Source: a virus. From it: 64,000 nucleotides of DNA. The stretch is taken from positions 32,348 to 96,347 of IMG/VR virus record IMGVR_UViG_3300034101_002201; one strand, written 5' to 3'. The notes under the pieces are model-generated. The model searched no databases and was not told the origin of the DNA. It saw nothing but the letters and a program-made list of their open reading frames with translations. Both the position numbers and the translations under genes were made by a program. Shown in pieces: positions 41,401 to 58,791 of this stretch (position 1 is its first letter; every line of letters begins with the position of its first letter).

Positions 41401-44400
41401 GCATATTCTGGACTAGTAATATCATTTAGAGGATTTGCTATCCAAGCAACATCTATGCTATCGTGTAAATCTTTAGTCGGGAATCCCTGTATAACATCGT
41501 TATTTCCTCCCAATACTCCATACAAAATAGATTTTGGATAAGCATCTATGAAACTAGTCCTGTTAGGCCATTGATTTTCACCGCCAATTTGAGCAACTGT
41601 AGAATAAACTCTCTGTTTAGTCTTAGTGTCAATATGAGAAACTAAGTTAACATAGAAGTTCACATTTTGATCTAAATAGCTATCATATATAAATTGCTTT
41701 GATTCACTATTAATTCCTAATAAAACGATTGTGGAAGTATCGTTTTCATAATATGGTTCTTCTACGCAATAGTAGCCCCTTGGAGAGACTTCTTCTTCTT
41801 CTGAATATGGATCTATTTTTACTCTAGATACGGCTTTTGCTTGTAAGACATAACCTTTACCATCAAAGTCTTGGGGTTTATAAAACACGGCTTCTGGATC
41901 TAAATTATAGGCAAAGTTATATTGTAAAGATGAGTAGTCACTATTTCCACTATCCCATATAAAATCTAATTCTGGCTTTGCTCTTCCACCAAATTCACCT
42001 CTTTCATTACTATCAGTTCTCTTTTCTATTATTGGTATACTAATAGTCTTTTCTGGAATTTCTGGAATAGTTATAGTTTGCATAGTTTTTTCTGCTGCAA
42101 CTAATAATGGAATTGGTTCTTGATTTTTTGTTGGCTTTGGTGGTGGTGGTGTATCATAGCCACAGTCTGGCACATAAGATCCAAAAATTAAAGGCCAATT
42201 ATATGAATAGATGACCGTTACAAATCCCTTTGGTGTTGGTTTGCAACATAAATCTTTCCATTCTGCCCGAATATCACCATAATGCTGAAGCGGCATTTCA
42301 CATCTGCTTTGAATTTGTATTTTCTCGGGTGGATCACTACAATCTGTGACCTTAGCACATCTCATTTGCTCAAAGAAATTAGGATAATAAATCTTAATAT
42401 CTGCTACACCGCTACCTATTAAGTTGGTTCTAGCTACATATGTATCAGTACATCCAAAGGGAACAAAAGATGGAACTATATTATTGAATGATGAATATCC
42501 ATTTGGTAATGATTCATATCTATTTCTAGCTTGGACTAACCTCATGCGAGAATTTAGTCTTTCTAGAAGAGTATTAAGAATTTTATTAGATTTAGAGTAC
42601 TGACCATCTGCTTCCCATATTGGATCATTACCAACAAGTACTAGATTTCTATCACCAAGTGCTAGCCAATTAGATATCTTATCAAAAACTTCATTACTTA
42701 AAGCGTTTGCTGAAGGTGTAACAATAAATATTAAACCTACACCTTGAGGAATTTCTGGATCATCAAAATCAGTCTTAACAAAATGTTTGTCTGCAAAGAC
42801 ATCTTTTACGTAATCAAAGTGTCCCGAATCAGCAGTCTTATTAGACATACTAATCATTTCATGTAAATTGCCAAATTTTCCATACTCTATTACGCCACTA
42901 TGTGGATAATATTTTCTTGATTCAAAAATTTTAACAGATCCAGCATTAACAGTCGCGGGCCAAGTGGGCTTAATACTGTCATTTCTATATTGTGGTCTAA
43001 ATTTCTTTTGTCTACCTTTTATGAATTTTTCGCACATACAGGTATAATAAATATCAGCATCGTTTGATAGATTCATGCTGTCCGTTGGAGATCCAACTAT
43101 CAACTTAGTTCCATCTTCATTTAAGTCTAGACTATACCCAAGCCTTGGAGTTGGTGCTGCCAAAGAATTGATAAAGGTCCAAGACCCTATTGGCGCATTA
43201 TCTTGATATGTATATTTGTATACTTGTTCGTATTCTTTAATGTCATAGTCTAGTCTAACTCTAAATTTATCCTCTGGACTTAAACTAAGATATAATTTTT
43301 CAGCATCTTCAATTCTTCCGGGAGACTGTAAATATTGTTGTAGTTCTGTTGAATATTTTGGCTGTTTAGACTGTACCCAATAAGGTATATTTAGATATAA
43401 GTATATTTTTGAGTCTGGCTTATATTCATATACAGTAACAGCATCATTAATATAAGGAGATCCAACAGCTATAACATCAGTATCGTCACTTATGGTTACA
43501 GCGTGACCAAACCTATCTGGATGAGAATAAGTTACATTTGGGGATCTTATTTCTTGAATCAAATTCCAAGATCCACTTTCTTGTTCAAAAATGTAAACAC
43601 GACCACCACTTTCTGGAGGTATAGTAAATGAGGGGTTGGCACTAGAATTAAATGATCCAACATTATTGGAAATAAATCTCTTACCATTTACTTCATTTAT
43701 GAAGTTGAAATCTAAAATTTTATTTAAAGCACCCTTAGACAATTCGATCCAATCTTCATCTTGACCAAATTCTGATGTAAATACAATGGCTTCCCCGCTA
43801 GATGGCATATCTGTATCAAGAGTCTTTACGCCACTATCGTGGCTATATTTTTTATAGTAGTCTACGAATCTACTGAGTGCTGGATCTAATGCTCCAGATA
43901 GCGATGCGCTATTATCTATGCAAATAGATAGTAATGGTGGAATATTGTTGTGTACTTTATTTTCATCATAAGGAAATGCTGTTAAGAATGAGGATTGAAT
44001 TCCACTAAATATTTGATTTATTTTTTCTTCTGACGGTACTTTGCCTCTATTTCTACTAATAGTAGATAGACTAATAAAATCTGGCTTATCTGGAAATTCT
44101 GATACACTGAGATTTGGATCATCAGCTATGGGCTGAATAATCATTAGCTTAACATCAAATTTGACAGATGGTGTGCTAAAATATTTGTATACTAAATCTT
44201 TATTTGTTATTTCTGCAACTACTTCTTCATATCCTTTATAACTATTAGGATATCTACCGGGTAATCTATACGAAAATTCATCTGTGAATAACATTACGCC
44301 AATATTCACTGTGTCAGGTTCTGTAAATGATAATGATCGCGTCCACTTGGCACTCGGTCCACCAACAACGATGATATTTCTTGAGTCATGACCAAGTGAC

Positions 44401-47400
44401 TTTCTTCCACTATCTATTGCTAAGTCTAAAGAATGTCCAAATTGTCTTCCCTCTTGACCAACATTCCAATATGTTTTTAAAATGTTAAATCCGGCAGGCA
44501 AGCTACCATCAAAGTCATTTGATTCAACTATTACAGAATAATCTCTTAACATTTCATTTGGAAGTGTCAATATTCCACTTAATTGCCAAGGAGATTTATG
44601 CTTGTCTGTGGGCCAAGAATAACCAGTTGGCCTATCTTCTCTACGATAAATAAATACAGAGCCTGCTTCTTGTAGAGTCTTTGTTCCTCCGATTTCATTT
44701 GAATCTGTTATAACTAAATCTCTCTTGGGCGCACCAACTATTAAAATGTTATCTTTAGAAGCTATGGCTTTGCCAAACTCATCTCCAGATGCAATGTAAT
44801 TAGTGGGTGGAATAATCTTTATGCCACTATTGTTGAAGAATGTGTCAGTATTAGCTATTGAATTATATTCTATTTCTGTAAATTCACTAGGAACTTCTAC
44901 AAAGTCTTTCGATCCATATCTACCTACCACAGTAACAACGTAAGGATAATTAGGAATTAAACCAGAATATTTTCTAATACCATAAAAATGTCCACTATAC
45001 ATTAGGTCAGTATCAAATGTAGTTACCGTTTGACCAATATTGTTTGTCTTTGTACTTTTAAAAGCTCCGCTCGGCAAAGATAAGTTCGTGTAAGTATACT
45101 GAGGTCTAAATATACCACCGTCTACACAAACCTCTGGTTCATACCAATCGATGCCGTGAATAGTAACAAAATCTTCTTCGCATCTAGCATTATTGCCATC
45201 TTCACATATCCCGCGACAAATTAAAGAAACACCTCGTATATCATCATCAGCATCTATTGTGGCATAAGAATTATCAAACGATGTTATTCCATCTCCAACA
45301 TTATTTTTATCCCATCTTATTGATGCCATGACGGGATCAGCGGATTCATAAGTCAGATAATTTATAGTATATAGGCTACAAGTTTGTGTTAATAAATTTT
45401 CTTGGATAGCAGCAGTGACCAAATTCATCGAAGCGTTACCAGATTGGTATACGTATGGAGAATTTGTGAAAAGTGGCATTGAACCACTAATATATCTATT
45501 ATCTACTAATTGTAAACCTCTGATATAGAGCGGTATCTGCAATTCTGGAGTAATATCAGTAAAAGATGTCAAAGATAAAGATTCAAATAGTATATCTGTT
45601 TCGCCATTTGCGTACAATGGCATTGATATCTCTCTCATCGGCGCGCCACTAACATAAAAAGTCAATGGCCTAGGAGCAGAATCAAACGATCCAAATAATT
45701 GTGGACCGCTGAATACGTCTATAGTAGCAAAAGCCGAAGTAAACAAATTAACAGAATCAGAAGACCAAGTAGATCCAGATGTATAAAAATCAACATTTGC
45801 GTCATGTCTAGGCCACTTTGATCCACTAGTATATAATGTTACGCCAGAAAATGGTACAAAATTTATACCACTATTAAATAAAGTAATTGTATCAAATGAA
45901 TATTGCTTACTCACAGAATACATATTCATTGTTGTATTCTTACCAGATCCCACTACTAGTGCTTGGCATTTAATATTGGCATTATGTATTTTTACTTTGC
46001 TCTTAAATGGTTGTCCACTTGGATATACAATATCATACTGTAAAAACATAGAATTAATATCTGTATTAAGATATCTATCATTAAATTCTCTAGCAATTGC
46101 TTCTGATTCAAACGATGACCAACCTTCTGAATAATCAAAAATGCTATTTTGATTAAAGACAGTTTCAATAGTTCTTATACAGCCGGATGGTTCAAGATAA
46201 TGAGTTTGTCTTGTAACGAGTCCAAAGTCTTGATTTGGTTTAAATGGATGGTTCTGAGAGGGTGTATACAAACTTACTATTAATTTAGGACCAAGTTTTT
46301 CATCATTCCAAATAACGTTTCCGCTGGATTCATATTCTAGTGTGGTTTGTACTGATATGCCACCATCTCTAAATCCATAACCTCTAGGAAGATTTTTGAC
46401 TATCCTTTGTGGAACTCTATAAAATCTATTTGCATCATCGCTGTCCAAGTCAGCTATATTAAATCTTAAAAAGTCATTCTCTATTTGAGTGTGGTAACAT
46501 ACTCCAGAAAGATTAACATCATCTGGTAATGACTTATTAGTAAATTGTGAATAACCAGATCCATGATGATTAAGTTCATGTGTTATATAATCAGAACCAA
46601 CCCTTACAGTCCAAACATCAAATGCTGGAGAAAAGCTACAAGTTCTAAAAGCACCTAAACGCCAATCATCTATATTATTATCTACAAATGACCATAATTT
46701 ATATCCATCATTATTTTCATCTGCATCTGTCCAAAATTTTTGTCTTATAGTTTCAAAAAATTTGGAAATACTAAAATACTTGTAAACACTATCTCTATTA
46801 GCAGAGGGAACATATTTTTCTGGGCCGGGATAGTATATTTGAGCCGGTATATTGTTAGTAATATTAGTTTGATTGCCATATAAAGAATTAGCAATAGGAT
46901 GATTTTTTGTTGAAGTAGTAGAAATACCAAACTCATGAACAAACATTTTCATTCCAGATCCAATGTTGGAATGACCGATTAATAACTTGTTTCCACTTGG
47001 ATTAAACCCAGTGGAGGTATTAGTAATAGCAGCTCCCCTTGCGTGATTAAAAATTCCAGTTTTTATTTCATTATCTGTATATAGACTAATTCTGTTTGCC
47101 AAAGATGGAGAAGGAGATCCAAATTCTCTGAATGTGACTATTGCCGATAGTGGGTACTGGTATTCATAATATGGTAAACTATCCTTAGCCTTTGATATTG
47201 TTCCATTATTTATTAGATATGCACATAGATAACCGTTTTCATATCCAAGATAAAAACCATTTGTTTTTTGTGAATTAATCTGTGAAACTAAAATACCAGA
47301 GTTAAAGAAAAAGTCATTCGAATGATAGTCGGGTGTAAATCTAATATAAAAAGCAAAACCATTATTTGTGTTTACATTTCCAAAGTCTAAATGAGCATTT

Positions 47401-50366
47401 GCACCAGACACTCTTACGGCGTTGTCATAAGCATCGCAAATCTTACCATATAGAGGATGACCTATAAAGTTGTTGCTACCACTAGATAGCAATGTCCAAT
47501 CCAATGATGAATAATTACCAGTATATCCTACTAACTGATTAGTGAAAATATTATTATTTTTGAATCTAAGTCCAAGATTTTGATATTTTTCACAATTGCC
47601 CACATATTTTCCACTCAAAGAACCAAGTCCACTACCAAGTGGTAATGAAAATATATTAGAACCACTATCATAATTGAAATTAAAGTAACCAGATAAAAAT
47701 GGTCGTTCAATTTCTGGATTATAAAATGAGTAATCAAATTCTGCCGCACTAAACGGACCATTTGTAATTGAGCCAGTTACCCCTCTCCATCTACGAGAAT
47801 AGTTAGTTTTTAATGTTGGATAATTGAGATAACCGTGGGGAATATTTTCTATCTTAGATAGTTGAGTTGAATATCCTAAACCGTGATTATGCTTTCTATC
47901 TGATGCCGAATTGTAATTAGAAGGCATCAATGTGAATTCTCTTTTTGTCATCTCTCTTGATTGATCACCACCGATAGTAATCATGGACAAAGCATTAGAT
48001 GGAGTATAATTTACAATTAATTTAATACTACAAATTTTTGCTCCGGTTGGCAAGGGTGATATATCAACATATAAGTTTTCAAACATGGATGCCGATGTAT
48101 AGGATATTGTGTCATATCCAAAATAGTTTTGCTCATTGTAAATTTTCAATGGAAAAGTATATTCTTGAAACTGAACACCAGTTACCCTTGGACACATCAG
48201 CCAAGCAACGCCATAAAATACATCAGCAATATTTGATTTTTCAATAGAAGTCAAATTATTTGAATTAGATACCGTAACAGTATCTATCAGCTTAAATATA
48301 TCAGACTCTAGTGTTGGATATGTATATTTTAATTCTTCTTGAGCAAAAATTGTTCTTGCTTTATCAAGCACATTATTTTTACTTTGTATTAATGCATTTT
48401 CTGATATTTCTTTAGCAAATTCTTTGCTATATTTTGAAAACTGAACTTGATGTTTTGAATTAGTAATTACTTTATATTCTGATAAATTCTTAGTTGTTGT
48501 TTTGATCTGGTTTAGGATTGTACTATTTGGTTTATAAACATCAATATCTTGTATTGTATAATGATCGCCTAGACTTGTGATATCTTTTTCATAATACTGA
48601 GATTTGTTTGATATAGCGTCAAATGACATAGATAAATCATCGATATCATAAAAGCCAGATATTTTTGGTATATCTTGGATTTTATACGATATTGTATCAT
48701 CATTTTGTAAAAATCCGCCAATTTTTTTAGTTACATTCAAAAGCTTATCATCACTATAACCAACAACATCAATAACATAATCTGGAATACTTGAGTTAAT
48801 TTTACTAGCTATTACTTTTAGCTCAACGCTTGTTACATTAAAATATTCATCATTATTTTTTAACAACTCATATGCAGCATTGTTAAATGCGGGATTATTT
48901 CCTCCAAAGTCAAAAGCCCCACCAACAAAACCCTTGGCATCTATAAATGGTAAAGTATTAAACTTAACAACTAATTTCCCGCTTGGATAAGAATCTGCAA
49001 GACCAGAGAGCATTATAAATTGATCTCTAGAGTCTGTACGGATTTTATTGACTAGTATATTAGCATGTTCTAGAGTAGTATTTTCGTATCTGTTTTCTTC
49101 TTCATCAAAAGCAATCCATTTACTATTTTTAGTTGGATATATCCCATTATCATATTGATATAGCATCATTTCTGATGGACCAAGAACTCGACTTATTGTT
49201 CTTGGTGTGTAACTAGATAATTGATATATCGGTAAAAATGATTCAATTGCTAAGTTTTCTGTACCGCTGTTTCCAACTTCTACGGCAGAAATTTTTAAAT
49301 AATTAAGTGGATCAATTAGTGGATTAAACTGCGGATAAGTAGACAAACAAGTATCTTCGTATCCCTCGTCAAATTTTTCAGAAAATGGTGATTGTTCGCA
49401 TTTTGCGCTAATAGAAAATGATAGTGTATATCCGCTTGGCTGATTTATTAATGGATAACTATTTTGCCACTGATAAGATGAAACTAGATTATTTGTTTTA
49501 GTATCAGAAATATAGGTAGTATATCCGGTATCTGGTTTTATGTTTATATCATTATATGATATTATTAAATTGCCAGATGGGTCTTGAAATTTTACATCAT
49601 AAATTTTGTAATATTGTGGCTTTCTCTCCATATAATTGCTATATGGTGCAAATGCTCTTATAGCAAAATAACTTTGCTTCGCTATCAAGTTTGGCTTGCT
49701 GACAGAAAATTTATATACTATGTCTCCGCTAACTAGTAGATTATTTGGAAATACATAAGAAACTTCATCATCTGTAATGAGATATCCGTTATTACGATTC
49801 GAAGTATAGTCACCTATAAAAACACCTTCATCTACAGCACCGTCGTGTCTAACTGGATATTCAGTTGATAAATAATCATAATTTTCGAGAAGAATTGAAT
49901 TACCATTTTCTGTTATCAAATTTTCAAAATTAGTAATTTTTACATCAACTGGAGAATTATCATATTTTGTAGAAAACTGAGCAAAACCGCTGGGAAACAA
50001 TTTTTGAGTAGCAATAAATCCTGCGGAGCCAAAAAATTTATCAGCATATTTTATACTGTATTTACTTGAAGACCCATTTCTTGATCGCAAAGTTCCATCT
50101 AATATGCTAATAAATTTTAAATCACTATTACGTCCACCTAATCTTGATATTGGAGATAAATTTGAATTTTCTCTTAGTCTTACACCACCAAAAAAACTAA
50201 GGCGTGTTGCACCATTAGCAATAAATTGTGTGTTAGCTCTTATTTTAAAAACTGAACCGTTTTTGTGATTTATTGGTCCAAGTACAGATGAATTTTTAGC
50301 AACTAATTTACTAGTAGCTTTAATTCTTTCGTAATCGGTAGGTACTAAACAAATCTCACAAGTCAT
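38499..50366 (-). CDS. giant virion protein with a LamG-like domain and FG-GAP beta-propeller repeats
   Basis: 3955 aa; FG...GAP/GSP repeats (DEFGK..IVGAP, QFGH..VGGP, RFGH..VGSP, RLGY..VGSP, LFGY..IGSP, RFGE..IGAP, QYGS); LamG-like GFAFYIRF...GFYLGY. Confidence 0.7.
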   Translation of the reverse strand: MTCEICLVPTDYERIKATSKLVAKNSSVLGPINHKNGSVFKIRANTQFIANGATRLSFFGGVRLRENSNLSPISRLGGRNSDLKFISILDGTLRSRNGSSSKYSIKYADKFFGSAGFIATQKLFPSGFAQFSTKYDNSPVDVKITNFENLITENGNSILLENYDYLSTEYPVRHDGAVDEGVFIGDYTSNRNNGYLITDDEVSYVFPNNLLVSGDIVYKFSVSKPNLIAKQSYFAIRAFAPYSNYMERKPQYYKIYDVKFQDPSGNLIISYNDINIKPDTGYTTYISDTKTNNLVSSYQWQNSYPLINQPSGYTLSFSISAKCEQSPFSEKFDEGYEDTCLSTYPQFNPLIDPLNYLKISAVEVGNSGTENLAIESFLPIYQLSSYTPRTISRVLGPSEMMLYQYDNGIYPTKNSKWIAFDEEENRYENTTLEHANILVNKIRTDSRDQFIMLSGLADSYPSGKLVVKFNTLPFIDAKGFVGGAFDFGGNNPAFNNAAYELLKNNDEYFNVTSVELKVIASKINSSIPDYVIDVVGYSDDKLLNVTKKIGGFLQNDDTISYKIQDIPKISGFYDIDDLSMSFDAISNKSQYYEKDITSLGDHYTIQDIDVYKPNSTILNQIKTTTKNLSEYKVITNSKHQVQFSKYSKEFAKEISENALIQSKNNVLDKARTIFAQEELKYTYPTLESDIFKLIDTVTVSNSNNLTSIEKSNIADVFYGVAWLMCPRVTGVQFQEYTFPLKIYNEQNYFGYDTISYTSASMFENLYVDISPLPTGAKICSIKLIVNYTPSNALSMITIGGDQSREMTKREFTLMPSNYNSASDRKHNHGLGYSTQLSKIENIPHGYLNYPTLKTNYSRRWRGVTGSITNGPFSAAEFDYSFYNPEIERPFLSGYFNFNYDSGSNIFSLPLGSGLGSLSGKYVGNCEKYQNLGLRFKNNNIFTNQLVGYTGNYSSLDWTLLSSGSNNFIGHPLYGKICDAYDNAVRVSGANAHLDFGNVNTNNGFAFYIRFTPDYHSNDFFFNSGILVSQINSQKTNGFYLGYENGYLCAYLINNGTISKAKDSLPYYEYQYPLSAIVTFREFGSPSPSLANRISLYTDNEIKTGIFNHARGAAITNTSTGFNPSGNKLLIGHSNIGSGMKMFVHEFGISTTSTKNHPIANSLYGNQTNITNNIPAQIYYPGPEKYVPSANRDSVYKYFSISKFFETIRQKFWTDADENNDGYKLWSFVDNNIDDWRLGAFRTCSFSPAFDVWTVRVGSDYITHELNHHGSGYSQFTNKSLPDDVNLSGVCYHTQIENDFLRFNIADLDSDDANRFYRVPQRIVKNLPRGYGFRDGGISVQTTLEYESSGNVIWNDEKLGPKLIVSLYTPSQNHPFKPNQDFGLVTRQTHYLEPSGCIRTIETVFNQNSIFDYSEGWSSFESEAIAREFNDRYLNTDINSMFLQYDIVYPSGQPFKSKVKIHNANIKCQALVVGSGKNTTMNMYSVSKQYSFDTITLFNSGINFVPFSGVTLYTSGSKWPRHDANVDFYTSGSTWSSDSVNLFTSAFATIDVFSGPQLFGSFDSAPRPLTFYVSGAPMREISMPLYANGETDILFESLSLTSFTDITPELQIPLYIRGLQLVDNRYISGSMPLFTNSPYVYQSGNASMNLVTAAIQENLLTQTCSLYTINYLTYESADPVMASIRWDKNNVGDGITSFDNSYATIDADDDIRGVSLICRGICEDGNNARCEEDFVTIHGIDWYEPEVCVDGGIFRPQYTYTNLSLPSGAFKSTKTNNIGQTVTTFDTDLMYSGHFYGIRKYSGLIPNYPYVVTVVGRYGSKDFVEVPSEFTEIEYNSIANTDTFFNNSGIKIIPPTNYIASGDEFGKAIASKDNILIVGAPKRDLVITDSNEIGGTKTLQEAGSVFIYRREDRPTGYSWPTDKHKSPWQLSGILTLPNEMLRDYSVIVESNDFDGSLPAGFNILKTYWNVGQEGRQFGHSLDLAIDSGRKSLGHDSRNIIVVGGPSAKWTRSLSFTEPDTVNIGVMLFTDEFSYRLPGRYPNSYKGYEEVVAEITNKDLVYKYFSTPSVKFDVKLMIIQPIADDPNLSVSEFPDKPDFISLSTISRNRGKVPSEEKINQIFSGIQSSFLTAFPYDENKVHNNIPPLLSICIDNSASLSGALDPALSRFVDYYKKYSHDSGVKTLDTDMPSSGEAIVFTSEFGQDEDWIELSKGALNKILDFNFINEVNGKRFISNNVGSFNSSANPSFTIPPESGGRVYIFEQESGSWNLIQEIRSPNVTYSHPDRFGHAVTISDDTDVIAVGSPYINDAVTVYEYKPDSKIYLYLNIPYWVQSKQPKYSTELQQYLQSPGRIEDAEKLYLSLSPEDKFRVRLDYDIKEYEQVYKYTYQDNAPIGSWTFINSLAAPTPRLGYSLDLNEDGTKLIVGSPTDSMNLSNDADIYYTCMCEKFIKGRQKKFRPQYRNDSIKPTWPATVNAGSVKIFESRKYYPHSGVIEYGKFGNLHEMISMSNKTADSGHFDYVKDVFADKHFVKTDFDDPEIPQGVGLIFIVTPSANALSNEVFDKISNWLALGDRNLVLVGNDPIWEADGQYSKSNKILNTLLERLNSRMRLVQARNRYESLPNGYSSFNNIVPSFVPFGCTDTYVARTNLIGSGVADIKIYYPNFFEQMRCAKVTDCSDPPEKIQIQSRCEMPLQHYGDIRAEWKDLCCKPTPKGFVTVIYSYNWPLIFGSYVPDCGYDTPPPPKPTKNQEPIPLLVAAEKTMQTITIPEIPEKTISIPIIEKRTDSNERGEFGGRAKPELDFIWDSGNSDYSSLQYNFAYNLDPEAVFYKPQDFDGKGYVLQAKAVSRVKIDPYSEEEEVSPRGYYCVEEPYYENDTSTIVLLGINSESKQFIYDSYLDQNVNFYVNLVSHIDTKTKQRVYSTVAQIGGENQWPNRTSFIDAYPKSILYGVLGGNNDVIQGFPTKDLHDSIDVAWIANPLNDITSPEYADELQAIKLWLKGNSRTTSLNKKLVITYDQNISSIKNIEKLLTALNVQMKPIYLNYLDKYASVQDFSLGLNSDSYISKFRPFVSFGESQDPIMNGRIDFTPIKLGPSSIPLAYSYSPVNDLVPKIAVNDFWEMRTGFCKVSFPVVACSGYELYFKTLQETPTERVPLYVVIENVFRTPRHPCPDTSFPEQSSLSYINDNGDYISGETLTPAFAFVLPADTEETLQVQVAENVSEINIYIGCNTRYTNSLNLVSEPRPRTTRLVGISGAMISTRNVVGFSEYDVVVGYEQQKISDRIPSSTSEIEVIRPISTECAKYCSSTELCELEGLSLNLIDDGPVVAAQELEIWSSFEAGYNRSRITLLSDPNLIQGQFLVDSEGVFRQDAGRFIRSLYPETYFAPTDILGRQYNVQTKLISPERGSPAKYFINDNSMQSLVSFFRGNSSFGSPSYSHINNKESTYNSEYVTDRPDIPWADLTDQKEIEETKNEFISGFFASILQTGCMYPRFSGVIGGNLYVDATIDGGLPELLKDKGYDYMDLDKIPDLYPGDLFGYSVSIQENKVIIGSPFSAFKSENINPWSTTSQLSLGKNGGGGAVYVFEKTGNGSGVDDVNISWQCVKKLKPDSLMGQNSGVSIVSDRFGESLYLNNDIMLIGAPGHSYGNEQIITRGEFGRKYFDESFDITTRQVIDLGISGNRQNYGNQQYSYIPKAGAVYTYEYGFSDWANRRARDWKFVEKDTSPSRLENEQYGSNVYLTRPYRSDADYTIFVGNEYWNTSGIVYDKDIMLRQNPPSTRNENAWIEGRVFGDKVSENKEARIKFYNAGDPNVPVITSNDVYATKDGYIFLEVSGQDPSTQSFITHRPYIEAVIGEYKSGTPKKTGLLLYSFGTNALPSSSLPLYTRVDVSANVYNTLGMYNSAILGFASGAMPSGLSMFASGYPRSISESGLMLVTSGTTIISESLPLRIRGK

Positions 50367-50374
50367 TTTATTTC

Positions 50375-53300
50375 CTAAGCCATTCTAGGCACAATTCCCG
50401 GATTACTCTTTAATTCACCATCTGTAGTTGCTCTAAGTGTATTAATTTTGTTCATTATTTCAGTTAAGATTTCATTCTTTACAGATTGTGATACACTAGC
50501 TAAAGCCTGCATACCAGTTAGATTTATATTTACATTGGTAGCATCTAATTTGATTTTAATTTCTGTACTTTTTAGGGCTTCAATATTTTTAGTTAAATCT
50601 CGGTTAAAAGTATTAAGAGCAGCGGTAAATATAGACATGGAATCAGAACTAGAACTTGGGCTTGGGCTTGGGCTTTCTGCATTCTTGCTACCAAATCTCC
50701 TATATCTAACCATTCCTCCGTCTGCCATCATCGCCGTTCCATTATTAGATACACCACTCGATCCATTGTTCATCGCTTGTAAAACACGTAAATTATTGCC
50801 TCTCTGAACAGCATTTCTATTAACTACAAATTCACCCGGAGTTAACATAGCTGGTATAGTATCTGTTCCCCTAGGTACAAATATACCATTACTAGCATAG
50901 AGTAATCCACCCTTTGCCATACCAACCGCATTTCCAGCTTCTCTGCCACGATTAACAACGTCTGCCAATTCTAATTTAGCAGCATTTACTATTACAGTCT
51001 CTGTCTGTACTTGCATTTCTGCCATTTCTGTTCCTAGTTGACCAGTTTCTCCAAGCATACCGCCTAATTGACGCAATCTGGATTTACTAGCTTCTTCTTC
51101 TGGTGTTGTACCAGATAATACTTGTGCTGCTCTTGCATCTCTTACACCCATGGAAGACAATGCAGCACCGGCAGCGGCTTCTGATAGACCTCCGGGACCG
51201 GCAAGTTGTTGACCATATAAAGTTTGTACGCCAGCCTCTTGTTGTCTTTGAATGTCCATAGACGCAGCACCAAGAGCCTGCGATCCATACAATTTCATTA
51301 GTCTTTCATCGCCACTAGCGATAGCAGCAGTAGCACCAACGGCAGATTGCTTTTTAAAGAACTCTTCTACATCACCCTTAACAAGAGATTCTAAAGAATC
51401 TTTTTCAAGTTTATTCTTTTCTTGAGTAATCTTGAGTTGATCTTCTTCTAGCTTGATTAATCCACGTATTGTTTCTATTTGAGTTCTATATGCTTTTTGT
51501 AAATCTTTTTGTGTTTCATCAGCTTCGACACCGGCAACACCCTGCATACCATTACGCTGGCTTTTTCTGGACTCTATATTACCAAACGCCCCACCAATTT
51601 CAGCATTCCTTCTTCTCAATTCTCCTATGTCGCCACTTTTCATAGCAGTTAAACCTAAACGAGATCCTTCAACATTAGATTTAGCTAATAAATTTCCTTT
51701 TCGTTCTTGGTTTGTTACTGCGCGACCACCATATTTTGCTTCAACTTCTCGCCCCTCCATTGTCAAGTCTAGAGCTTCTTGTTGAGCCTGCACTAAATTG
51801 CGTTCAGCTTCAATCCTTTGTTTAGTAAGTGATATCAGTTGTTGATTTATTTTGGCGGTTTGTTCAGCAACCTTTTTCGCTTCTTCAAGTGTCTTTTGAC
51901 CAGCTTCGTCAAGATATTTTTGAAACACACTAAGATCGCCACCTCTTAGTTTTGTCATATCATCATTTGATAGCTTGACATTACCAAGTACGTCTTGCAT
52001 TCGTTTTCTTACATCTTCACCTATACCAGCATTTTTTAATTGCTCGTCTAAATTCTTAGCAAACTTATCAGTGAATCCTTCTGCATTTAATCCACGGAAA
52101 TCAGCTTTACTAAAGTCTTTTTTAACTCCTTCGAATATTTCATTATAATTTGCAGATACGGCAGCAAAAGCTGCGGCATTTTCTTTAAACATTTGTACAG
52201 ATTTATCAGTAGCACCTAATTGTTCTAAATTTGCTGCAACATCATTGATAGCAGATTGAACATTTTTAGGATTCATGGCCTGACCAGCTTCGCTGAATGC
52301 CGCTTCAAGAGTTGCAACACCTTGAGTAATTGGAGTAGATCCAACTTCTAAACTATCTGCAAAAACAGATAAAGATGCAGCGGCAGCATTGGCAGTAGCT
52401 ACTGGGCCTCGCAAACCTAGATTTAACGCTTCAAATGCTTTTTTAGCTTTTGCAACTTCTTTGGCTATATTATCGAAGCCCTGTTTTAATTGAGTACTTC
52501 CTTGATTTACGAGAGAAAAATATAAACCGGGATTATTTTTCTTGATGTCTTCCATGACATCTTCAAATGATCCACCGGCTACAGCAAATTGTCTAGATAA
52601 AGCATTTATTGCTGGGGTACTTTGTTGTATTAATGCTTCTTGAGCTTTTTTATCGCCAGCAGACAATTCTTTATTTTCTTTGTCTATTCTTGTATTCCTC
52701 TGTTTGCCAGATTCTAACCCCATATAACCAGCTAGACCTAGTGTGCCAACTCTAGCTGTGCCACGCAGAAAACCCCCAACCATGCCACTCTTATTTTTTT
52801 CATTATCTGCAATAGCCTTTTTACTAGTTTCGCTATTTTTCATTACTTCTTGACCAGCCATGGCATTAGATGCTATAGCCTGAGAAGCCGTTATAGTTCC
52901 ATTCTCTAAGTCTTTCATTGCTTTAGTAACAGCTTCAGATCCATCGTTTAATGCTTTTTGTGTTTTTACTCCTTGAGCTTGCGCCGCAGCTAATGAACGA
53001 ATACTATCAGCTGTATTTCCACCAAATAAAGTTCCAATACCTATAGCAGCTTCTTTAATGTATGGTCCTATAATTGGAAGTTCGCTTCCTAATTTAAGAG
53101 CAGATGCTGTTGCTACTCCGACTGCTAATCCAAATGGACCAAAAAGTGAACTTATTCCAATTATAGTAGACCCTAAACCATTTATGGCTTCGGAGCCAGC
53201 TGCTTCTATGGCATTTGATTTAGCTTTTTCTACATTGCCATCTTGAATAGCCTTGTTAGCTTGACCTTGATAATCAACAAATGAGTCAATAACAGAAGTT

Positions 53301-56300
53301 ATTGCGGTAAATGCTAATCCTAAACCTATTGCTGGGCCACTCAATTTATTTAAATTTGTCAAACCCTTACCAGCTAAACCGCCAGCTTGTGCTGACACAG
53401 AAGCACCACTACCAATTACAGATTTGGCTGGGTTAGCTATTGTGGCAGATGCGCCCTTATAAAATTGAGAACCAGCCTTCGTAATCGTACCTCCAGCGGT
53501 AGATAATCCACTCTTTACCGCACCAACTCCGGGTATCTTAGATAGTGCATCCCCGCCAACACTCAAAGTTCTTCCTAATGCGCCACTGGCCTTTGTTGCA
53601 ATACCTTTGGAAGAACCAAAAATATTAGAAAATGTTGCATTTGGACTGTTCAATCCTGCACTAAATCCTCTGCCAATATTAGATTTATTTATAGCAGTGG
53701 CGGCTGTGGCACCTCTAGTAATTAAACTTTTTCCAGTATCTATAGTTGCTTGAGTTGCCCGTCCAGCTAATCCTATTCCTCTACTTAAACCGGCACCACC
53801 CGGAGCATCTACTCTTCCAGCCATTCCTCTTTTAAAGATGGTAGAAAAACTTTTTAGACCGGGAATTCCTCCTTTAATAGTAGAAAATAAATCTGTGAGC
53901 GATTTGGCACCACTCAAAAAATCTAAAGCATTTTGAGCTACCATTTTAGCTGTAGCTAAAGATAATTGTATATTCATTTGCTGTAGAGCTATAATAGATA
54001 TACCAATAGTAGAAGCTAAATTGCTAAAAGTGTTTAATAAAGTAGCACCGACTCTTTCAAATGCTGAACTATTTTCATCAATAACCGGAGTCAAAGAAGT
54101 GAGTGCAGCTTGTACAGCCGTTAATCCACCTAAAGAAAAATATAATGATTGTCCAAAATTCTGTACAAAGCCAGATGATTTGTTCTGAGATTCAGCATTG
54201 CTATCTACCGCTTTTGTTTGCGCGATTTGTGCTTTTGTTAAAGCTTCTGCTTGTTGAGTTAAAGAGTCTAATCCAACGAATGCAACTATGCCGGGATTGC
54301 TTTTGCTACTTGCCGGTTGCGCCCCAGCCATTGGTGTACCACTAGCAAATTTTTGAACAATTCCTCCGCTGGCATATCTTCCAACTTTATTCATACGGTT
54401 TAGATTACCGTAACCAATATTCTGGGCGGATGAGCGATTAATAACAAACTCGCCGGGGGTTAATAGGGCGGGAACGGTGTCAGTTCCAACTCCACCGCCC
54501 TTTGCAAACTGTTGCACATCCATCCAAAGATTTTTACGCCCCATCATATCAACAAGCTTGGAACTATTGATCTTAAATCGTGAACCGGGCTGTAGTGTAA
54601 ATTCACTTTCTGATTCTGGGGGTTTTTGATAAAATGTTTCCATTTTACCAGTTCTGGGATTCAAGGCTTGTTTAGAACCACCAACTTTTCTACCACTTAG
54701 TTGTTTCTCAACATCAACTCCCATAGCGTTCTTTTTAGTCATGATGGTCATCATTGCTGCCCATTTGTCTTCTGAGCGATCAGCATTATCCAAGAACATT
54801 TTGGCTTTATTCATTTCCTTACTAGTAGAAAGGAAACCAGATAGTTTAAATGTTCTTCCAATTATTTTTTTGGCTTCTTGATCATAATACTTTTCTCTAT
54901 CAAATAATCTAGTACCTTCTGGAATTTTAGGATTTTTATTAAGTCCAGTTTGGTTTGCCATCGAATCAAATGCATTGCGGGATATGGAACTATATAATAG
55001 TTTTGGTGCAGCAGATCTTAAAGATCTCATATCACGAATTTTATCAGCAGTTTCTTTTCTGTCGGATGAATATAAAGAGTTTCCTTCAAAGAAACTTTGT
55101 AGAGTGTTTTTAGGATCTCTAGCAACACCCCCGCCTTTGGCAAACTTTTGAATAAGTCCACCAAAGAACTTCTTTCTTGGTCCTTTTGGATTATCAAATT
55201 CTGATCTACCCTTACTAGTTCCTTCCATAGAAAGAACTCTTTTCTTCAGTGCTTGAAATGTTCCACTAGTATTAACTTGTTCAGCAAGAGTATTCATTGT
55301 TTTTCTAGATGCTATATCATTCAATATGCTACTATCTAAAGTCTTTTTAGCATCGGTTGGCTTGTCTGCTAGTTCTGAAAATGCTTTAAATTGCCCCAAA
55401 TGACTACCAATACCCATGGGAAAATCGAAAGCATCTCTATCTTGTTTGCCTCTATTTGCATCAAATGGCGCACCAAGACTACTTACAGCCGCTTCAAAAA
55501 TTTTGCCAGTAGCATCTTCTAATCCTATTGATTTAATTACATTTTGGTTAAAAGCACCAATAGCGGTTGGAAGGCCAACGGAAGAAGCTAATTGAGAAGC
55601 TACGTTTGGTATTATGCCTGTATAAGCATTTGTAAGAGAAGTTTTTATACCTTGTTCAACAGAAGAGTCTGAATTTTTTGTAGAAGGGAAAGACACCCCC
55701 TTAGTTGTAAATGTTTGTCGGTTTTTACCCCCAAAAGCTATTCTACTAACTAATTTTTCTAATCTATTTCCGAAAGTTAATCCATCTGGAGCTTCTTTGC
55801 GGTCCATTAAATTTTGTAGTTTACCGCTTTTATCAGTAAGTTTTAAGTTTCCAGATATGCCACCAGCAAGTTGATTATTGTTAGATAATGTAGCAAGAAT
55901 ATCTTTTACAGTAACAGTTCCTTTACCAGTAGCCTGCGAATCCATAGGATTTAAAGCTATTGCTCCAACAGTTCCGCCCATAGCATACCGATTATTATTC
56001 ATCGCCGCAAGTGTACCAGCACCCATTTTATTAACGCTACTCTTGCGTATAACAAATTCGCCGGGAGCTAACATCGCAGGAACAGTATCACTATTACCGG
56101 TGCCGGGAACTAAACCGCCTCTTGCAAATCCAAGAACTTTTCCGCCCTTATTATATGTTCGTCCAGATGTAGCACCGCTCATTATTCCACCAAAAAATCC
56201 ACCTAAACCTTTGGCAACTTTAAAAGCTGCTAATGCTGCTAGCATTGGAAGTAAAGGCTTAATAGAATCTGCGATCTTAATTAATGCTGAAGCTAAAGAT

Positions 56301-57499
56301 AGAGCAGAATTAGCCATGATTTGAAATGTAGAAGTTTCAGTAACACTGCGGATTAACGCAAGGAACTCTTCTCTAACTTTCATAATCCTAATGGCAAGTG
56401 CGGCTTGTGCTGATGCGGCATCTTGTGTTAAAGAATCACCAGCCTTCATGGCAACATTAAGAGCGGACTGAGCGGTAGAGAATTGCTGTAAAAGTGGAAG
56501 AACTTTACCAATCTGTCGGAATCCACCAAGCTCTTCAGCAATACTAATAAATGTAAGATCGCCCTCCCCCAATCCAGACAAAGCTTCACTTAATCGTCTG
56601 ATGGCTTCATATGGGCCAACGAACTTGCCATTAAGATCCACTAATTCCACGCCAAATTGTTTTAAGAATTCAATAGTTTTGGGACGTTGAATACGTGTAA
56701 AAATAGTACGTAAACCAGTACCAATACTTTCAGCACTTTCTCGCGTTGTGGCTCTAACACTAGTAAATAATGCTAATAGTTCATTTAAGTCACCGCCCGA
56801 TGCCTTAAACACACCACCTGTTCTACGAACAACGTCAATTAAGTCGCTGGCTTCTACGGCAAATGCACCGGCAACAGCATTGATAGAACCAAGTTGCTTT
56901 TCTAATGCTCCAACACCCTGACCAAATTGAGCAAGAATAGCAATAGCACCTTCTGCTGTTTCTGTTATACTATCAAAGTTAGGAGCAAGAGCAGCTTTTG
57001 CTAATGTTCTTAAGGCAATAGAAGTATCTTCAGCTGTTAGACCGGCTTGAGCTAATACGGTAGAAACTTCTAATAAATCTGACGAAGCGACACCAAAACC
57101 TGTAGATAAATTAGTTATCTGCTTAGTAAGACCACGAAGCTGGCTTATACTTTTGCCTGTTACTTGGCTTACTTTAATCAATTGGCGTTCAAAATCAATA
57201 GCTGTCTCTACCGCACTCCCAAGAGTACTAGTAAATAAACTAACTGCCCTAGTTGCAATAGAAAAAGCAGCAAACCGCCTAATAGAAAGGGCAAATGCTT
57301 TACCCATTCTTTCGGCGGCTGTTGTTGCTTGATTAGAGGCTTGAGCTACTTGCTGAATTTGCTTTTGAGCTTGTACCGCCCCCTGTACTTGTACATTGAC
57401 GGTAACGCCCTGTAATTGTTGTTGTATTTGTTGTACAACTTGTTTAACATTATTAGGAGCTTGTAGCTGTAATTGTGCGGTCAGTACGAACTTGGACAT
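50375..57499 (-). CDS. tail tape measure protein with internal cargo domains
   Basis: 2374 aa; TP901-like core (DFERQL, LAQAG, RESAESIGTGLRTIFTR, GGFRQ), hydrophobic segments, coiled coils, three DT(V/I)PA(M/L)LxPGEFV modules. Confidence 0.92.
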   Translation of the reverse strand: MSKFVLTAQLQLQAPNNVKQVVQQIQQQLQGVTVNVQVQGAVQAQKQIQQVAQASNQATTAAERMGKAFALSIRRFAAFSIATRAVSLFTSTLGSAVETAIDFERQLIKVSQVTGKSISQLRGLTKQITNLSTGFGVASSDLLEVSTVLAQAGLTAEDTSIALRTLAKAALAPNFDSITETAEGAIAILAQFGQGVGALEKQLGSINAVAGAFAVEASDLIDVVRRTGGVFKASGGDLNELLALFTSVRATTRESAESIGTGLRTIFTRIQRPKTIEFLKQFGVELVDLNGKFVGPYEAIRRLSEALSGLGEGDLTFISIAEELGGFRQIGKVLPLLQQFSTAQSALNVAMKAGDSLTQDAASAQAALAIRIMKVREEFLALIRSVTETSTFQIMANSALSLASALIKIADSIKPLLPMLAALAAFKVAKGLGGFFGGIMSGATSGRTYNKGGKVLGFARGGLVPGTGNSDTVPAMLAPGEFVIRKSSVNKMGAGTLAAMNNNRYAMGGTVGAIALNPMDSQATGKGTVTVKDILATLSNNNQLAGGISGNLKLTDKSGKLQNLMDRKEAPDGLTFGNRLEKLVSRIAFGGKNRQTFTTKGVSFPSTKNSDSSVEQGIKTSLTNAYTGIIPNVASQLASSVGLPTAIGAFNQNVIKSIGLEDATGKIFEAAVSSLGAPFDANRGKQDRDAFDFPMGIGSHLGQFKAFSELADKPTDAKKTLDSSILNDIASRKTMNTLAEQVNTSGTFQALKKRVLSMEGTSKGRSEFDNPKGPRKKFFGGLIQKFAKGGGVARDPKNTLQSFFEGNSLYSSDRKETADKIRDMRSLRSAAPKLLYSSISRNAFDSMANQTGLNKNPKIPEGTRLFDREKYYDQEAKKIIGRTFKLSGFLSTSKEMNKAKMFLDNADRSEDKWAAMMTIMTKKNAMGVDVEKQLSGRKVGGSKQALNPRTGKMETFYQKPPESESEFTLQPGSRFKINSSKLVDMMGRKNLWMDVQQFAKGGGVGTDTVPALLTPGEFVINRSSAQNIGYGNLNRMNKVGRYASGGIVQKFASGTPMAGAQPASSKSNPGIVAFVGLDSLTQQAEALTKAQIAQTKAVDSNAESQNKSSGFVQNFGQSLYFSLGGLTAVQAALTSLTPVIDENSSAFERVGATLLNTFSNLASTIGISIIALQQMNIQLSLATAKMVAQNALDFLSGAKSLTDLFSTIKGGIPGLKSFSTIFKRGMAGRVDAPGGAGLSRGIGLAGRATQATIDTGKSLITRGATAATAINKSNIGRGFSAGLNSPNATFSNIFGSSKGIATKASGALGRTLSVGGDALSKIPGVGAVKSGLSTAGGTITKAGSQFYKGASATIANPAKSVIGSGASVSAQAGGLAGKGLTNLNKLSGPAIGLGLAFTAITSVIDSFVDYQGQANKAIQDGNVEKAKSNAIEAAGSEAINGLGSTIIGISSLFGPFGLAVGVATASALKLGSELPIIGPYIKEAAIGIGTLFGGNTADSIRSLAAAQAQGVKTQKALNDGSEAVTKAMKDLENGTITASQAIASNAMAGQEVMKNSETSKKAIADNEKNKSGMVGGFLRGTARVGTLGLAGYMGLESGKQRNTRIDKENKELSAGDKKAQEALIQQSTPAINALSRQFAVAGGSFEDVMEDIKKNNPGLYFSLVNQGSTQLKQGFDNIAKEVAKAKKAFEALNLGLRGPVATANAAAASLSVFADSLEVGSTPITQGVATLEAAFSEAGQAMNPKNVQSAINDVAANLEQLGATDKSVQMFKENAAAFAAVSANYNEIFEGVKKDFSKADFRGLNAEGFTDKFAKNLDEQLKNAGIGEDVRKRMQDVLGNVKLSNDDMTKLRGGDLSVFQKYLDEAGQKTLEEAKKVAEQTAKINQQLISLTKQRIEAERNLVQAQQEALDLTMEGREVEAKYGGRAVTNQERKGNLLAKSNVEGSRLGLTAMKSGDIGELRRRNAEIGGAFGNIESRKSQRNGMQGVAGVEADETQKDLQKAYRTQIETIRGLIKLEEDQLKITQEKNKLEKDSLESLVKGDVEEFFKKQSAVGATAAIASGDERLMKLYGSQALGAASMDIQRQQEAGVQTLYGQQLAGPGGLSEAAAGAALSSMGVRDARAAQVLSGTTPEEEASKSRLRQLGGMLGETGQLGTEMAEMQVQTETVIVNAAKLELADVVNRGREAGNAVGMAKGGLLYASNGIFVPRGTDTIPAMLTPGEFVVNRNAVQRGNNLRVLQAMNNGSSGVSNNGTAMMADGGMVRYRRFGSKNAESPSPSPSSSSDSMSIFTAALNTFNRDLTKNIEALKSTEIKIKLDATNVNINLTGMQALASVSQSVKNEILTEIMNKINTLRATTDGELKSNPGIVPRMA
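54443..56155 (-). repeat. two DTVPAxLxPGEFV modules and AxGG motifs flanking the TMP cargo region
   Basis: Copies at 56051-56128 and 54443-54508; third copy at 50825-50920. Confidence 0.85.
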
Positions 57500-57531: not shown

Positions 57532-58425
57532 CTATTCACTTTCCGTTGCTGTTGACTTCTTTTTTTTAGTGGGTTTTTCGTCATCTTCTGAGTCATCAGA
57601 ATTTAACTTAATTTCTTTATCGTTATCATCTACGTAGGTTAAATCTGGAATATAATTGCCATTTTCGTCAAGAACGTTACCATCCTTGTCTACTCTCTTA
57701 CCATCTCCATTTAACCAATAACCCTGCTTATCTATTCTACGACCGTCTGTATCTACTGTTTCTCCCTTGTCATTTACAAGGCTTAAATCCTCATTAACAA
57801 AGTGGAACATCTTGAGAAATTTATTCTCTGGAAGTTTAGCCTCAAAATCCTTATCTACAGAATACATCATACCGGCTAGAGCAGAAGCGGCCATAAATGC
57901 AACTTCGTCATCTGACCTTTCTTTATAGTCATCCATATCATTATACACTTTCTGACCATTTTCATAATATGTACAATTTGCTACTAGGTAATCAAACCTT
58001 ACATTATCAGAAATGGCCTCGGCTGTGTTTTGTTCAAGACTGATTTTTTCCGCAATTAAGTCCCTTAATTCATTTCTTTTAATTCTCATATCAATGGCTA
58101 TTTTTTTGCCTTCAGAAGCTTTTAGCTTTTTGCCAGAAGATCCACTGACATAAAGCCTTTTTTCTAAATCTGCTATTTCTTGAACTACTTTTTTCTGTTC
58201 CTCGTCTTTGCCTTCATCCCAAATACCTTGCTGTTTCATGAACTTTTCTAGTTCTTTTTTGGTCATAATTCCATCTCTAACACAATCTGTCCAAGCCTTT
58301 GCTCCAACTCTTTGTGCTTGTGATATTAATGAGCTACTTGGACGTTTAACTACTAACTTAGTAACTTCTTCTTTTCCACTCTTTGTTCTTTTTACTTCTA
58401 CTATTTTTTCCTTTTCCTGTAACAT
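57532..58425 (-). CDS. putative tail assembly chaperone with DxxG repeats
   Basis: Immediately upstream of the TMP; GGAGGA RBS before ATG at 58425; paralogous to the 58802-59833 gene. Confidence 0.6.
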   Translation of the reverse strand: MLQEKEKIVEVKRTKSGKEEVTKLVVKRPSSSLISQAQRVGAKAWTDCVRDGIMTKKELEKFMKQQGIWDEGKDEEQKKVVQEIADLEKRLYVSGSSGKKLKASEGKKIAIDMRIKRNELRDLIAEKISLEQNTAEAISDNVRFDYLVANCTYYENGQKVYNDMDDYKERSDDEVAFMAASALAGMMYSVDKDFEAKLPENKFLKMFHFVNEDLSLVNDKGETVDTDGRRIDKQGYWLNGDGKRVDKDGNVLDENGNYIPDLTYVDDNDKEIKLNSDDSEDDEKPTKKKKSTATESE

Positions 58426-58437
58426 CGTTTCCTCCAA

Positions 58438-58791
58438 TTATTTGTTATTAGGGTTTATCACTGGTATTTTCATCTGATATCTCATCCACTCTACTTCATA
58501 CTGAGCTAATTCAGCATCAATATTTCTTGCTTGATTATTGCCACGATCTAAAATTTCTGACCGTACTTTGTTATACATGGTCTTCATTTCTTCTTGGTCT
58601 TTTGTCAATGGCTTTCCATCTATATTATTCCATAGAAAACCAAAATTTTCTTCTATTGTACTTAAAGCTCCTATCATAGTAGTTTGAATTTTTTTTTTCA
58701 AAATCTTTGATAGTCTGTCTTTAGAATCACTTTTATATTTTGATTCTCTAATTTTTTTGTAATCTTGGGGTGTAATATTTTCCGAGTCCAT
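58438..58791 (-). CDS. hypothetical helical protein in the tail chaperone region
   Basis: 117 aa, AGGAG RBS. Confidence 0.65.
   Translation of the reverse strand: MDSENITPQDYKKIRESKYKSDSKDRLSKILKKKIQTTMIGALSTIEENFGFLWNNIDGKPLTKDQEEMKTMYNKVRSEILDRGNNQARNIDAELAQYEVEWMRYQMKIPVINPNNK

Follow-up and report, generated by a model that had tools for sequence, protein, structure and literature searches.

What, beyond the length of its tail, can a phage write into a tape measure protein (TMP)? TMPs are regarded as rulers and channel formers, and to our knowledge the enzymes found inside them are cell-wall hydrolases. The question is raised by a 64,000-nucleotide (nt) stretch of the IMG/VR virus record IMGVR_UViG_3300034101_002201 (the window; all coordinates are window positions, and amino acid (aa) positions follow TMP numbering), which contains the gene for an unusually partitioned TMP. 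A module of ~55 aa occurs in it three times, and short motifs of the form aromatic- or Met-x-x-GG stand at the borders of its segments. An earlier note, made from the letters alone, had read the gene as a carrier of effector enzymes bracketed by these repeats, and had proposed the repeats as processing sites, recombination anchors, or both. The order of elements given there is correct, namely module 1, domain A, an FFGG-FAKGG joint, domain B, module 2, a hydrophobic and coiled-coil part, and module 3, and all of the motifs listed are present; its boundaries, 50714-56155, run exactly from aa 449 (YNKGG) to aa 2262 (MADGG). Here we report that the stretch between modules 1 and 2 is a slot in a fixed TMP scaffold, and that the content of this slot varies by units.

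A variable slot in a fixed scaffold

The protein matched PF10145 (PhageMin_Tail, Phage-related minor tail protein) at aa 126-312 with 91.1 bits against a cut-off of 33.2, and it matched PHROG tape-measure families with E values of 4e-19 to 5e-10. These matches, the position of the gene and the hydrophobic and coiled-coil content all fit, and by sequence they identify the protein as a TP901-type TMP. Its [FYWM]xxGG motifs, at aa 449, 458, 505, 786, 998, 1042, 1121, 2194 and 2258, number nine against 2.05 expected (2,000 shuffles, with a shuffle maximum of 8); in the 120 relatives introduced below there are 9.9 per protein, against 1.9 by shuffling. FFGG (aa 778-781) is placed just ahead of the FAKGG at aa 786-790, and the core of the module, D.[VI]PA.L..GEFV (D-T-[VI]-P-A-x-L-x-P-G-E-F-V), is found at aa 471, 1007 and 2213.

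A word-indexed search for relatives of 2,000-3,000 aa returned more than 2,495 proteins, all metagenomic, of which 120 were examined in detail. Modules were placed in these proteins with a profile hidden Markov model (HMM) built from 318 module copies. Three modules were present in 109 of the 120, while nine carried a tandem pair at the second position. All 120 share the N-terminal 445 aa and modules 1, 2 and 3. Module 1 occupies aa 456-511 in almost every one, modules 2 and 3 are separated by ~1,150 aa, and the tail past module 3 measures 105-140 aa (median 116). The gap between modules 1 and 2, by comparison, ranges from 220 to ~1,090 aa. The earlier note had predicted conserved flanks around variable segments, and this is the pattern seen: the N-terminal part is 70-92% identical and module 1 is fixed, whereas the units between modules differ in number and identity. 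The ruler part (aa 1055-2193) is 35-62% identical among relatives.

When the slots of the 120 proteins were cut at GG motifs, they resolved into ~37 segment families with narrow length ranges, arranged in 41 architectures. Domain A stands alone in 43 proteins and is joined by one to four further units in the other 77. As a check on these boundaries that is independent of the motif-based cutting, we examined where internal BLAST alignments end; 40% of the ends lay no more than 10 aa from a motif, whereas randomly placed positions did so in 10% of cases (at most 12% in 200 trials).

The commonest accessory unit, family 2 (26 of 120 relatives; for example, L008:10455-10865 (+)), has many invariant polar and Gly residues, including GGG, D-x-D-R-T, S-K-S and G-I-P, and from this conservation looks like another enzyme or binding domain. 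A particularly long slot of 1,203 aa between modules 1 and 2, with at least four units, occurs in an IMG/VR relative (L036:9534-13142 (+)); none of its units had a Pfam or PHROG match. Similarly, no Pfam, PHROG or PDB-sequence match was obtained for accessory units of families 2, 3, 11, 23 and 35 or for the inserts of L036 and L018. Ten distant relatives (P0121-P0130) are larger still, at 3,400-5,762 aa, and carry 4-8 module copies along their whole length; if the whole protein counts as ruler, TMPs of this type would specify extraordinarily long tails.

Units are exchanged at the joints

We examined the junctions between units in protein sequences and in IMG/VR loci. Relatives with nearly the same N-terminal part as the window's TMP differ from it in one unit or the other. 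For example, P0002 (N-terminal part 90%, domain A 93% identical) has an unrelated 104-aa unit in place of domain B, and P0003 (N-terminal part 89%) pairs a domain A of 91% identity with a domain B of 60%. P0004 presents the converse arrangement, with an N-terminal part of 90%, a domain A of 31% and a domain B of 94% identity. In block-wise alignments the switch points coincided with YAMGG, which closes module 1, and with the joint FFGGLIQKFAKGG of 13 aa. Indeed, P0002 and P0031 are ~90% identical up to this joint and unrelated immediately past it, and the identity of P0004 rises at the same joint from ~20-40% to 90-96%.

The nucleotide sequences show the same outline. In 36 IMG/VR loci homology begins at codon 1 and breaks off at codons 503-509; the slot is skipped, and similarity returns at codons 996-1004 over ~50 codons. 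Contigs of related phages from other lake metagenomes match the window solely on such islands of homology. The 13-aa joint peptide is found in 10 IMG/VR loci, and because these differ synonymously, it is kept by selection on the peptide and not by recent copying. The A-B arrangement is not an assembly artefact, because a contig of 434 nt obtained from another lake metagenome run reads across the A-B joint (54789-55222) with 0 differences. As these sequences indicate, related phages have exchanged units in frame, between genomes, at aromatic-x-x-GG joints. Of the proposal that the repeats anchor recombination, exchange between genomes at the joints is seen, whereas anchoring within the gene fails: the three module copies share only ~60% nucleotide identity and a longest exact run of 8 nt, and we rejected them as substrates of intragenic recombination on this ground.

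Domain B is predicted to be an ADP-ribosyltransferase

The AlphaFold2 model of domain B (mean predicted local distance difference test (pLDDT) score 81) gave as its best Foldseek matches in the PDB Certhrax, Plx2A, C3larvin, CDTa, iota Ia and VIP2, with E values of ~1e-7 and a probability of 1.0. Alignment to iota Ia with VIA-align covered residues 3-207 of the domain (Z 13.2; root-mean-square deviation 3.1 A over 156 residues), and Z values of 12.5, 12.0 and 11.4 were obtained for VIP2, C3 and ExoS. In an alignment of 15 relatives, in which all rows but P0063 are correctly aligned, R51 (LYSSISR) of the domain is invariant, and S101-T102-S103 (FLSTS) and E174-x-E176 (ESEF) are retained, with hardly any variation, throughout the correctly aligned rows, at 54-94% identity. 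By modelled fold and active site, not by curated threshold, domain B is a divergent ADP-ribosyltransferase of the R-S-E (C3/VIP2/iota) type. Within the R-S-E clade, E-x-E rather than Q-x-E accompanies arginine as acceptor, and from this motif domain B is probably arginine-specific.

An exhaustive search of 1.84 billion representatives found 18 relatives of domain B, all inside proteins of 835-5,762 aa, and none as a free gene. With the exception of one weak match to a repeat protein (P0132), all of them carry the N-terminal part or the modules of the TMP family, up to eight modules in one case. No relative was found when domain B alone was compared with viral contigs. The transferase family, as judged from its sequence neighbours, appears to be tied to TMPs.

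Domain A is the constant unit

Domain A had been taken for optional cargo, and the relatives contradict this: profile-profile comparison found a homologue in every one of the 120. The first-position families homologous to domain A are 0, 1, 9, 13/14, 17 and 32 and, more weakly, 30 and 36. Its AlphaFold2 model (pLDDT 79.5) is globular alpha/beta. That the slot holds globular domains and not ruler segments, as the earlier note supposed, is thus upheld by the models of both domains, neither of which is a helical ruler.

Across 37 sequences, G-x-x-F-E160, G-A-P-F-D, D183-F-P and D207-A-K209 of domain A are invariant or nearly so, and from this conservation the domain looks like an enzyme of some kind. 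Its E160, D183 and D207-A-K209 follow the order of the PD-(D/E)xK site, and the model places a pair of short helices between the strands that bear D and DxK. Foldseek against the PDB and BFVD found nothing at E <= 0.001, and the best VIA-align result (Z 5.2) covered a helical hairpin only, with no nuclease or other structure matched. Nothing usable was found in the ESM Atlas and nothing in Pfam at E <= 10, while PHROGs gave just a weak tail-protein match (E 0.0036). A near-length search for stand-alone homologues yielded none except a 205-aa fragment on a 1.3-kb contig. The idea that the modules bracket enzymes is therefore borne out for domain B, with its transferase fold and catalytic residues, whereas a nuclease reading of domain A lacks fold support by Foldseek and VIA-align, though the E...D...DxK order is there.

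A probable payload in the tail

Our analysis suggests that the tail probably carries a ready-made ADP-ribosyltransferase into the host. We assign a probability of roughly 0.6 to the fuller reading, in which the TMP is a fixed scaffold with a swappable slot and, in this phage, an intact transferase is carried in the tail and delivered to the host cytoplasm. The scaffold consists of the N-terminal 445 aa, the modules (three, or up to eight in larger relatives) of the type seen in phage lambda gpH, the hydrophobic and coiled-coil ruler, and a presumed C-terminal tip anchor of ~116 aa. The slot always holds a unit of the domain A type, to which about two thirds of relatives add one to four units of many unrelated families. 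The GG joints would most simply be flexible, selectable boundaries between separately folding units.

As parts of the TMP the units would travel in the tail lumen. A precedent is the TMP of phage TM4, whose embedded 114-aa enzyme motif is functional and dispensable, aids infection and adds ~20 nm of tail (PMC1796659). The TMPs of T5, lambda and JBD30 have their C-termini in the tail tip, and expulsion of the TMP builds a channel (PMC10038345, PMC11445458, PMC12617516); T5 pb2 has been described as metastable in the tube (PMC10038345), and a labelling enzyme fused to the inner-membrane protein ManZ reached the lambda TMP while injection was under way (PMC13190303). By this route the C-terminus would exit first, and the slot (aa 510-1000) would follow late, once the hydrophobic stretch at aa 1154-1470 had passed and directly ahead of the N-terminal part and the DNA. 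The site of action of the transferase should be the cytoplasm, because the enzyme needs NAD+, and by modifying a host protein there it would aid takeover or counter-defence, in the manner of head-borne T4 Alt.

Some points weigh against this reading. Three or six folded copies of a 23-kDa domain are too large to lie side by side in a lumen a few nm wide, and therefore the units would have to travel unfolded and then refold. The term effector is established for just one unit family, domain A and the common accessory families having no recognisable function. Finally, domain B, searched by itself, scores 20.5 bits (E 3.4e-4) against PF03496 and falls just short of the 23.4 bits required; the relatives P0012 and P0099 carry a precomputed match to this family.

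The module in other phages and the question of cleavage

The module is not confined to this family. By tblastn it is present in the TMPs of 792 cultured-phage records (Mycobacterium 489, Gordonia 100, Pseudomonas 84, and others), at 986 places and in one copy in most records. Lambda gpH, too, is matched by the module HMM, at aa 732-776 (E 7e-10); its module region (aa 732-787 of 853) reads HFATGG...PAGIVHRGEFV...GVGNL...YATGG and sits as module 3 does, ~70-120 aa from the C-terminus. The Pfam family PF09718 (Tape_meas_lam_C) maps to gpH aa 627-701, apart from the module, and because it covers this different part of gpH the module itself is without a Pfam family. The N-terminal family of the lambda protein is PF06791, as against PF10145 here. 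A single-sequence search with module 3 and the C-terminal tail found no PDB sequence match. The module cannot be regarded as a special bracket for cargo, as first thought; it is a widespread TMP element that reaches eight copies in larger relatives. Among cultured phages, the TMP of Gordonia phage Bunnybear (L037) has three modules, at aa 952, 1629 and 1971 of 2,142, and additional FASGG and MAGGG motifs between modules (aa 1236-1450), which may make it a laboratory model for cleavage at the motifs.

The gpH match bears on the alternative that the TMP is a polyprotein, in which the modules or GG joints are proteolytic sites and the protein is cut at assembly or ejection, freeing domain A and the transferase as separate proteins. 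Lambda gpH is indeed cut during tail maturation, into gpH* and a gpHC of ~14 kDa, with site and catalyst unmapped (PMC12617516), and a mass estimate puts the cut at ~aa 712-738, adjoining the first FATGG. In T5, cleavage of pb2 after R1127 parts the hydrophobic region precisely from the enzymatic domain, and the tail retains both products (PMC10038345). From these two proteins, processing at or near the modules is plausible, and the conservation of the joint peptide despite synonymous changes points to a function for the peptide itself. Proximity is nevertheless the sole link to the lambda cut, and no protease has been identified. Moreover, the residue that follows GG varies (T, L, G, I, L, M) and is not a conserved nucleophile, and we rejected self-cleavage of the SEA or Ntn type for this reason. 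On balance, we give the polyprotein reading a real but minority chance.

A broader version of the same idea is slightly more tentative still. The lambda-gpH-type module with its aromatic-A-x-GG ends might be a general TMP cleavage signal, and giant TMPs with three to eight modules might be polyproteins that free enzymes into the cytoplasm just before the DNA. If true, this would also identify the determinant of the cut from gpH to gpH*.

We consider it unlikely that the modules are instead structural contacts (with the tail tube, with chaperones or for trimer register) serving very long tails, and that slot diversity reflects escape from host sensing or blocking, the units staying attached and acting at the envelope if at all. 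The spread of the module, mostly as a single copy, through TMPs of cultured phages would suit such a role, as would its recurrence along the full length of the 3,400-5,800-aa relatives, beyond the slot; TMP-binding defence systems exist (SNIPE, PMC13190303), and most slot units are without an enzyme signature. However, all catalytic residues of the transferase are kept in relatives of only 54-68% identity, which is hard to explain without an activity that uses NAD+, a cytoplasmic compound, and the gain, loss and reordering of whole units is unlike the usual escape by point variation.

It is very improbable that the embedded enzymes act late in the producing cell, before the TMP joins tails, and are fused to it just for expression: NAD+ is at hand in the cytoplasm, where the TMP is synthesised, and the data are compatible with an active unassembled protein, but the transferase family resides solely in giant, mostly recognisable TMP-family proteins, domain A has no free-standing relative beyond the fragment mentioned above, and delivery accounts better for so strict an association with an ejected protein.

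Gene layout and neighbours

The features of the TMP gene are collected in the table. The hydrophobic windows of the protein lie at aa 1154-1172, 1386-1409 and 1442-1470, and at 0.15 nm per residue the predicted tail length is ~356 nm, of which the slot accounts for ~72 nm.

Table. Features of the tape measure gene in the window.
Feature	Position	Strand	Evidence
Whole TMP gene, 2,374 aa	50375..57499	(-)	Open reading frame list and translation, PF10145, PHROG matches
Conserved N-terminal TMP core, aa 1-445 (PF10145 at aa 126-312)	56165..57499	(-)	70-92% identity in tabulated relatives
Module 1, aa 449-509: YNKGG-FARGG-DTVPAMLAPGEFV-...-YAMGG	55973..56155	(-)	Motif search and module HMM
Domain A, aa 510-777: constant, enzyme-like unit; invariant GxxFE, GAPFD, DFP, DAK	55169..55972	(-)	Alignment, AlphaFold2 model
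Joint, aa 778-790: FFGGLIQKFAKGG, exchange point between units	55130..55168	(-)	Block-wise identity in relatives
Domain B, aa 791-997: predicted C3/VIP2/iota-type ADP-ribosyltransferase	54509..55129	(-)	AlphaFold2, Foldseek, VIA-align, alignment
Module 2, aa 998-1054: FAKGG-DTVPALLTPGEFV-...-YASGG-IVQK-FASG	54338..54508	(-)	Motif search, module HMM, resumed nucleotide homology
Ruler/channel part, aa 1055-2193: Gly/Ala/Ser-rich hydrophobic segments, then coiled-coil-like charged region	50921..54337	(-)	Hydrophobicity and regional composition
Module 3, aa 2194-2262: MAKGG-DTIPAMLTPGEFV-...-MADGG	50714..50920	(-)	Motif search and module HMM
C-terminal tail, aa 2263-2374: presumed tail-tip anchor	50375..50713	(-)	Role suggested by TMPs of other phages

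Directly upstream of the TMP gene, in the usual position of tail chaperones, are two small open reading frames (ORFs) of 117 and 301 aa (57532-58791, (-)). They share a frame and are separated by one TAA; stop-codon read-through between them was considered and rejected, given that GGAGG and an ATG follow the stop and make the second ORF look like an ordinary gene. Downstream lie ORFs of 3,955, 622, 1,590 and 1,155 aa. The first of these (38499-50366, (-)) begins 8 nt past the TMP stop and presumably encodes a very large protein of the tail tip or of a fibre. Pfam matched it solely to FG-GAP repeats near aa 3533-3558, and, these excepted, the neighbours of the TMP gene belong to no PHROG or Pfam family.

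The source contig is 96,347 bp long, and the same sequence or close relatives recur in lake and freshwater metagenomes of several studies. A candidate capsid-region protein had no match among cultured phages, and the N-terminal part of the TMP had no relative in a scan of one genome per prokaryotic species. This picture fits a lytic, uncultured lineage of freshwater siphophages.

Comparison with known systems

The ingredients of this arrangement are already known separately, as cell-wall hydrolases embedded in TMPs, as transferases borne in the head (T4 Alt, MuF-VIP2) and as polyvalent or polymorphic multi-domain proteins; the literature searched contained no account of a TMP with a transferase in it or of a motif-fenced, exchangeable TMP slot. 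A family of slot-bearing TMPs would add a third role to the two that TMPs are credited with, that of an exchangeable, tail-borne payload delivered ahead of any phage gene expression. The finding also exposes dozens of families of slot units without known fold or function, and the link to gpH makes the cleavage question testable in a tractable phage, lambda.

The likeness to lambda gpH lies in the same ~55-aa module at the position of module 3, with a cut nearby. It is a likeness of sequence only: lambda has one module, no inserted globular units and a different N-terminal family.

As in polyvalent proteins (Iyer et al. 2017) and polymorphic toxins, a mobile element here joins unrelated units into a single giant polypeptide, and close relatives exchange them like cassettes. 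Polyvalent proteins, however, are linked to head-packaged MuF, portal or RNA-polymerase modules and carry H-Y-D transferases, whereas here the setting is a tail TMP and the transferase is of the predicted R-S-E type; the paper that describes them makes no mention of TMPs (Iyer et al. 2017). Polymorphic toxins place their variable unit at the C-terminus, next to an immunity gene, and neither feature is seen here.

T4 Alt and the MuF-VIP2 fusions, too, are R-S-E transferases; carried in the particle, they are thought, and for Alt shown, to reach the cell together with the DNA and to act on proteins of the host by modifying them (PMC5512222, PMC7302621, PMC9206674). They reside in the head, on or near portal-associated MuF proteins, in contrast to a transferase inside the TMP of the tail.

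Finally, motif 3 of TM4 gp17 and T5 pb2 share with this protein an enzyme embedded in a TMP, in TM4 as a unit dispensable for viability that counts toward tail length (PMC1796659) and in T5 with a cleavage site lying between the enzyme and the hydrophobic region (PMC10038345). Both of these enzymes hydrolyse the cell wall and work in the envelope, whereas the enzyme predicted here is of an NAD+-dependent, protein-modifying type that would need the cytoplasm, and it occupies a multi-unit slot with conserved joints whose content is combinatorially exchanged among relatives.

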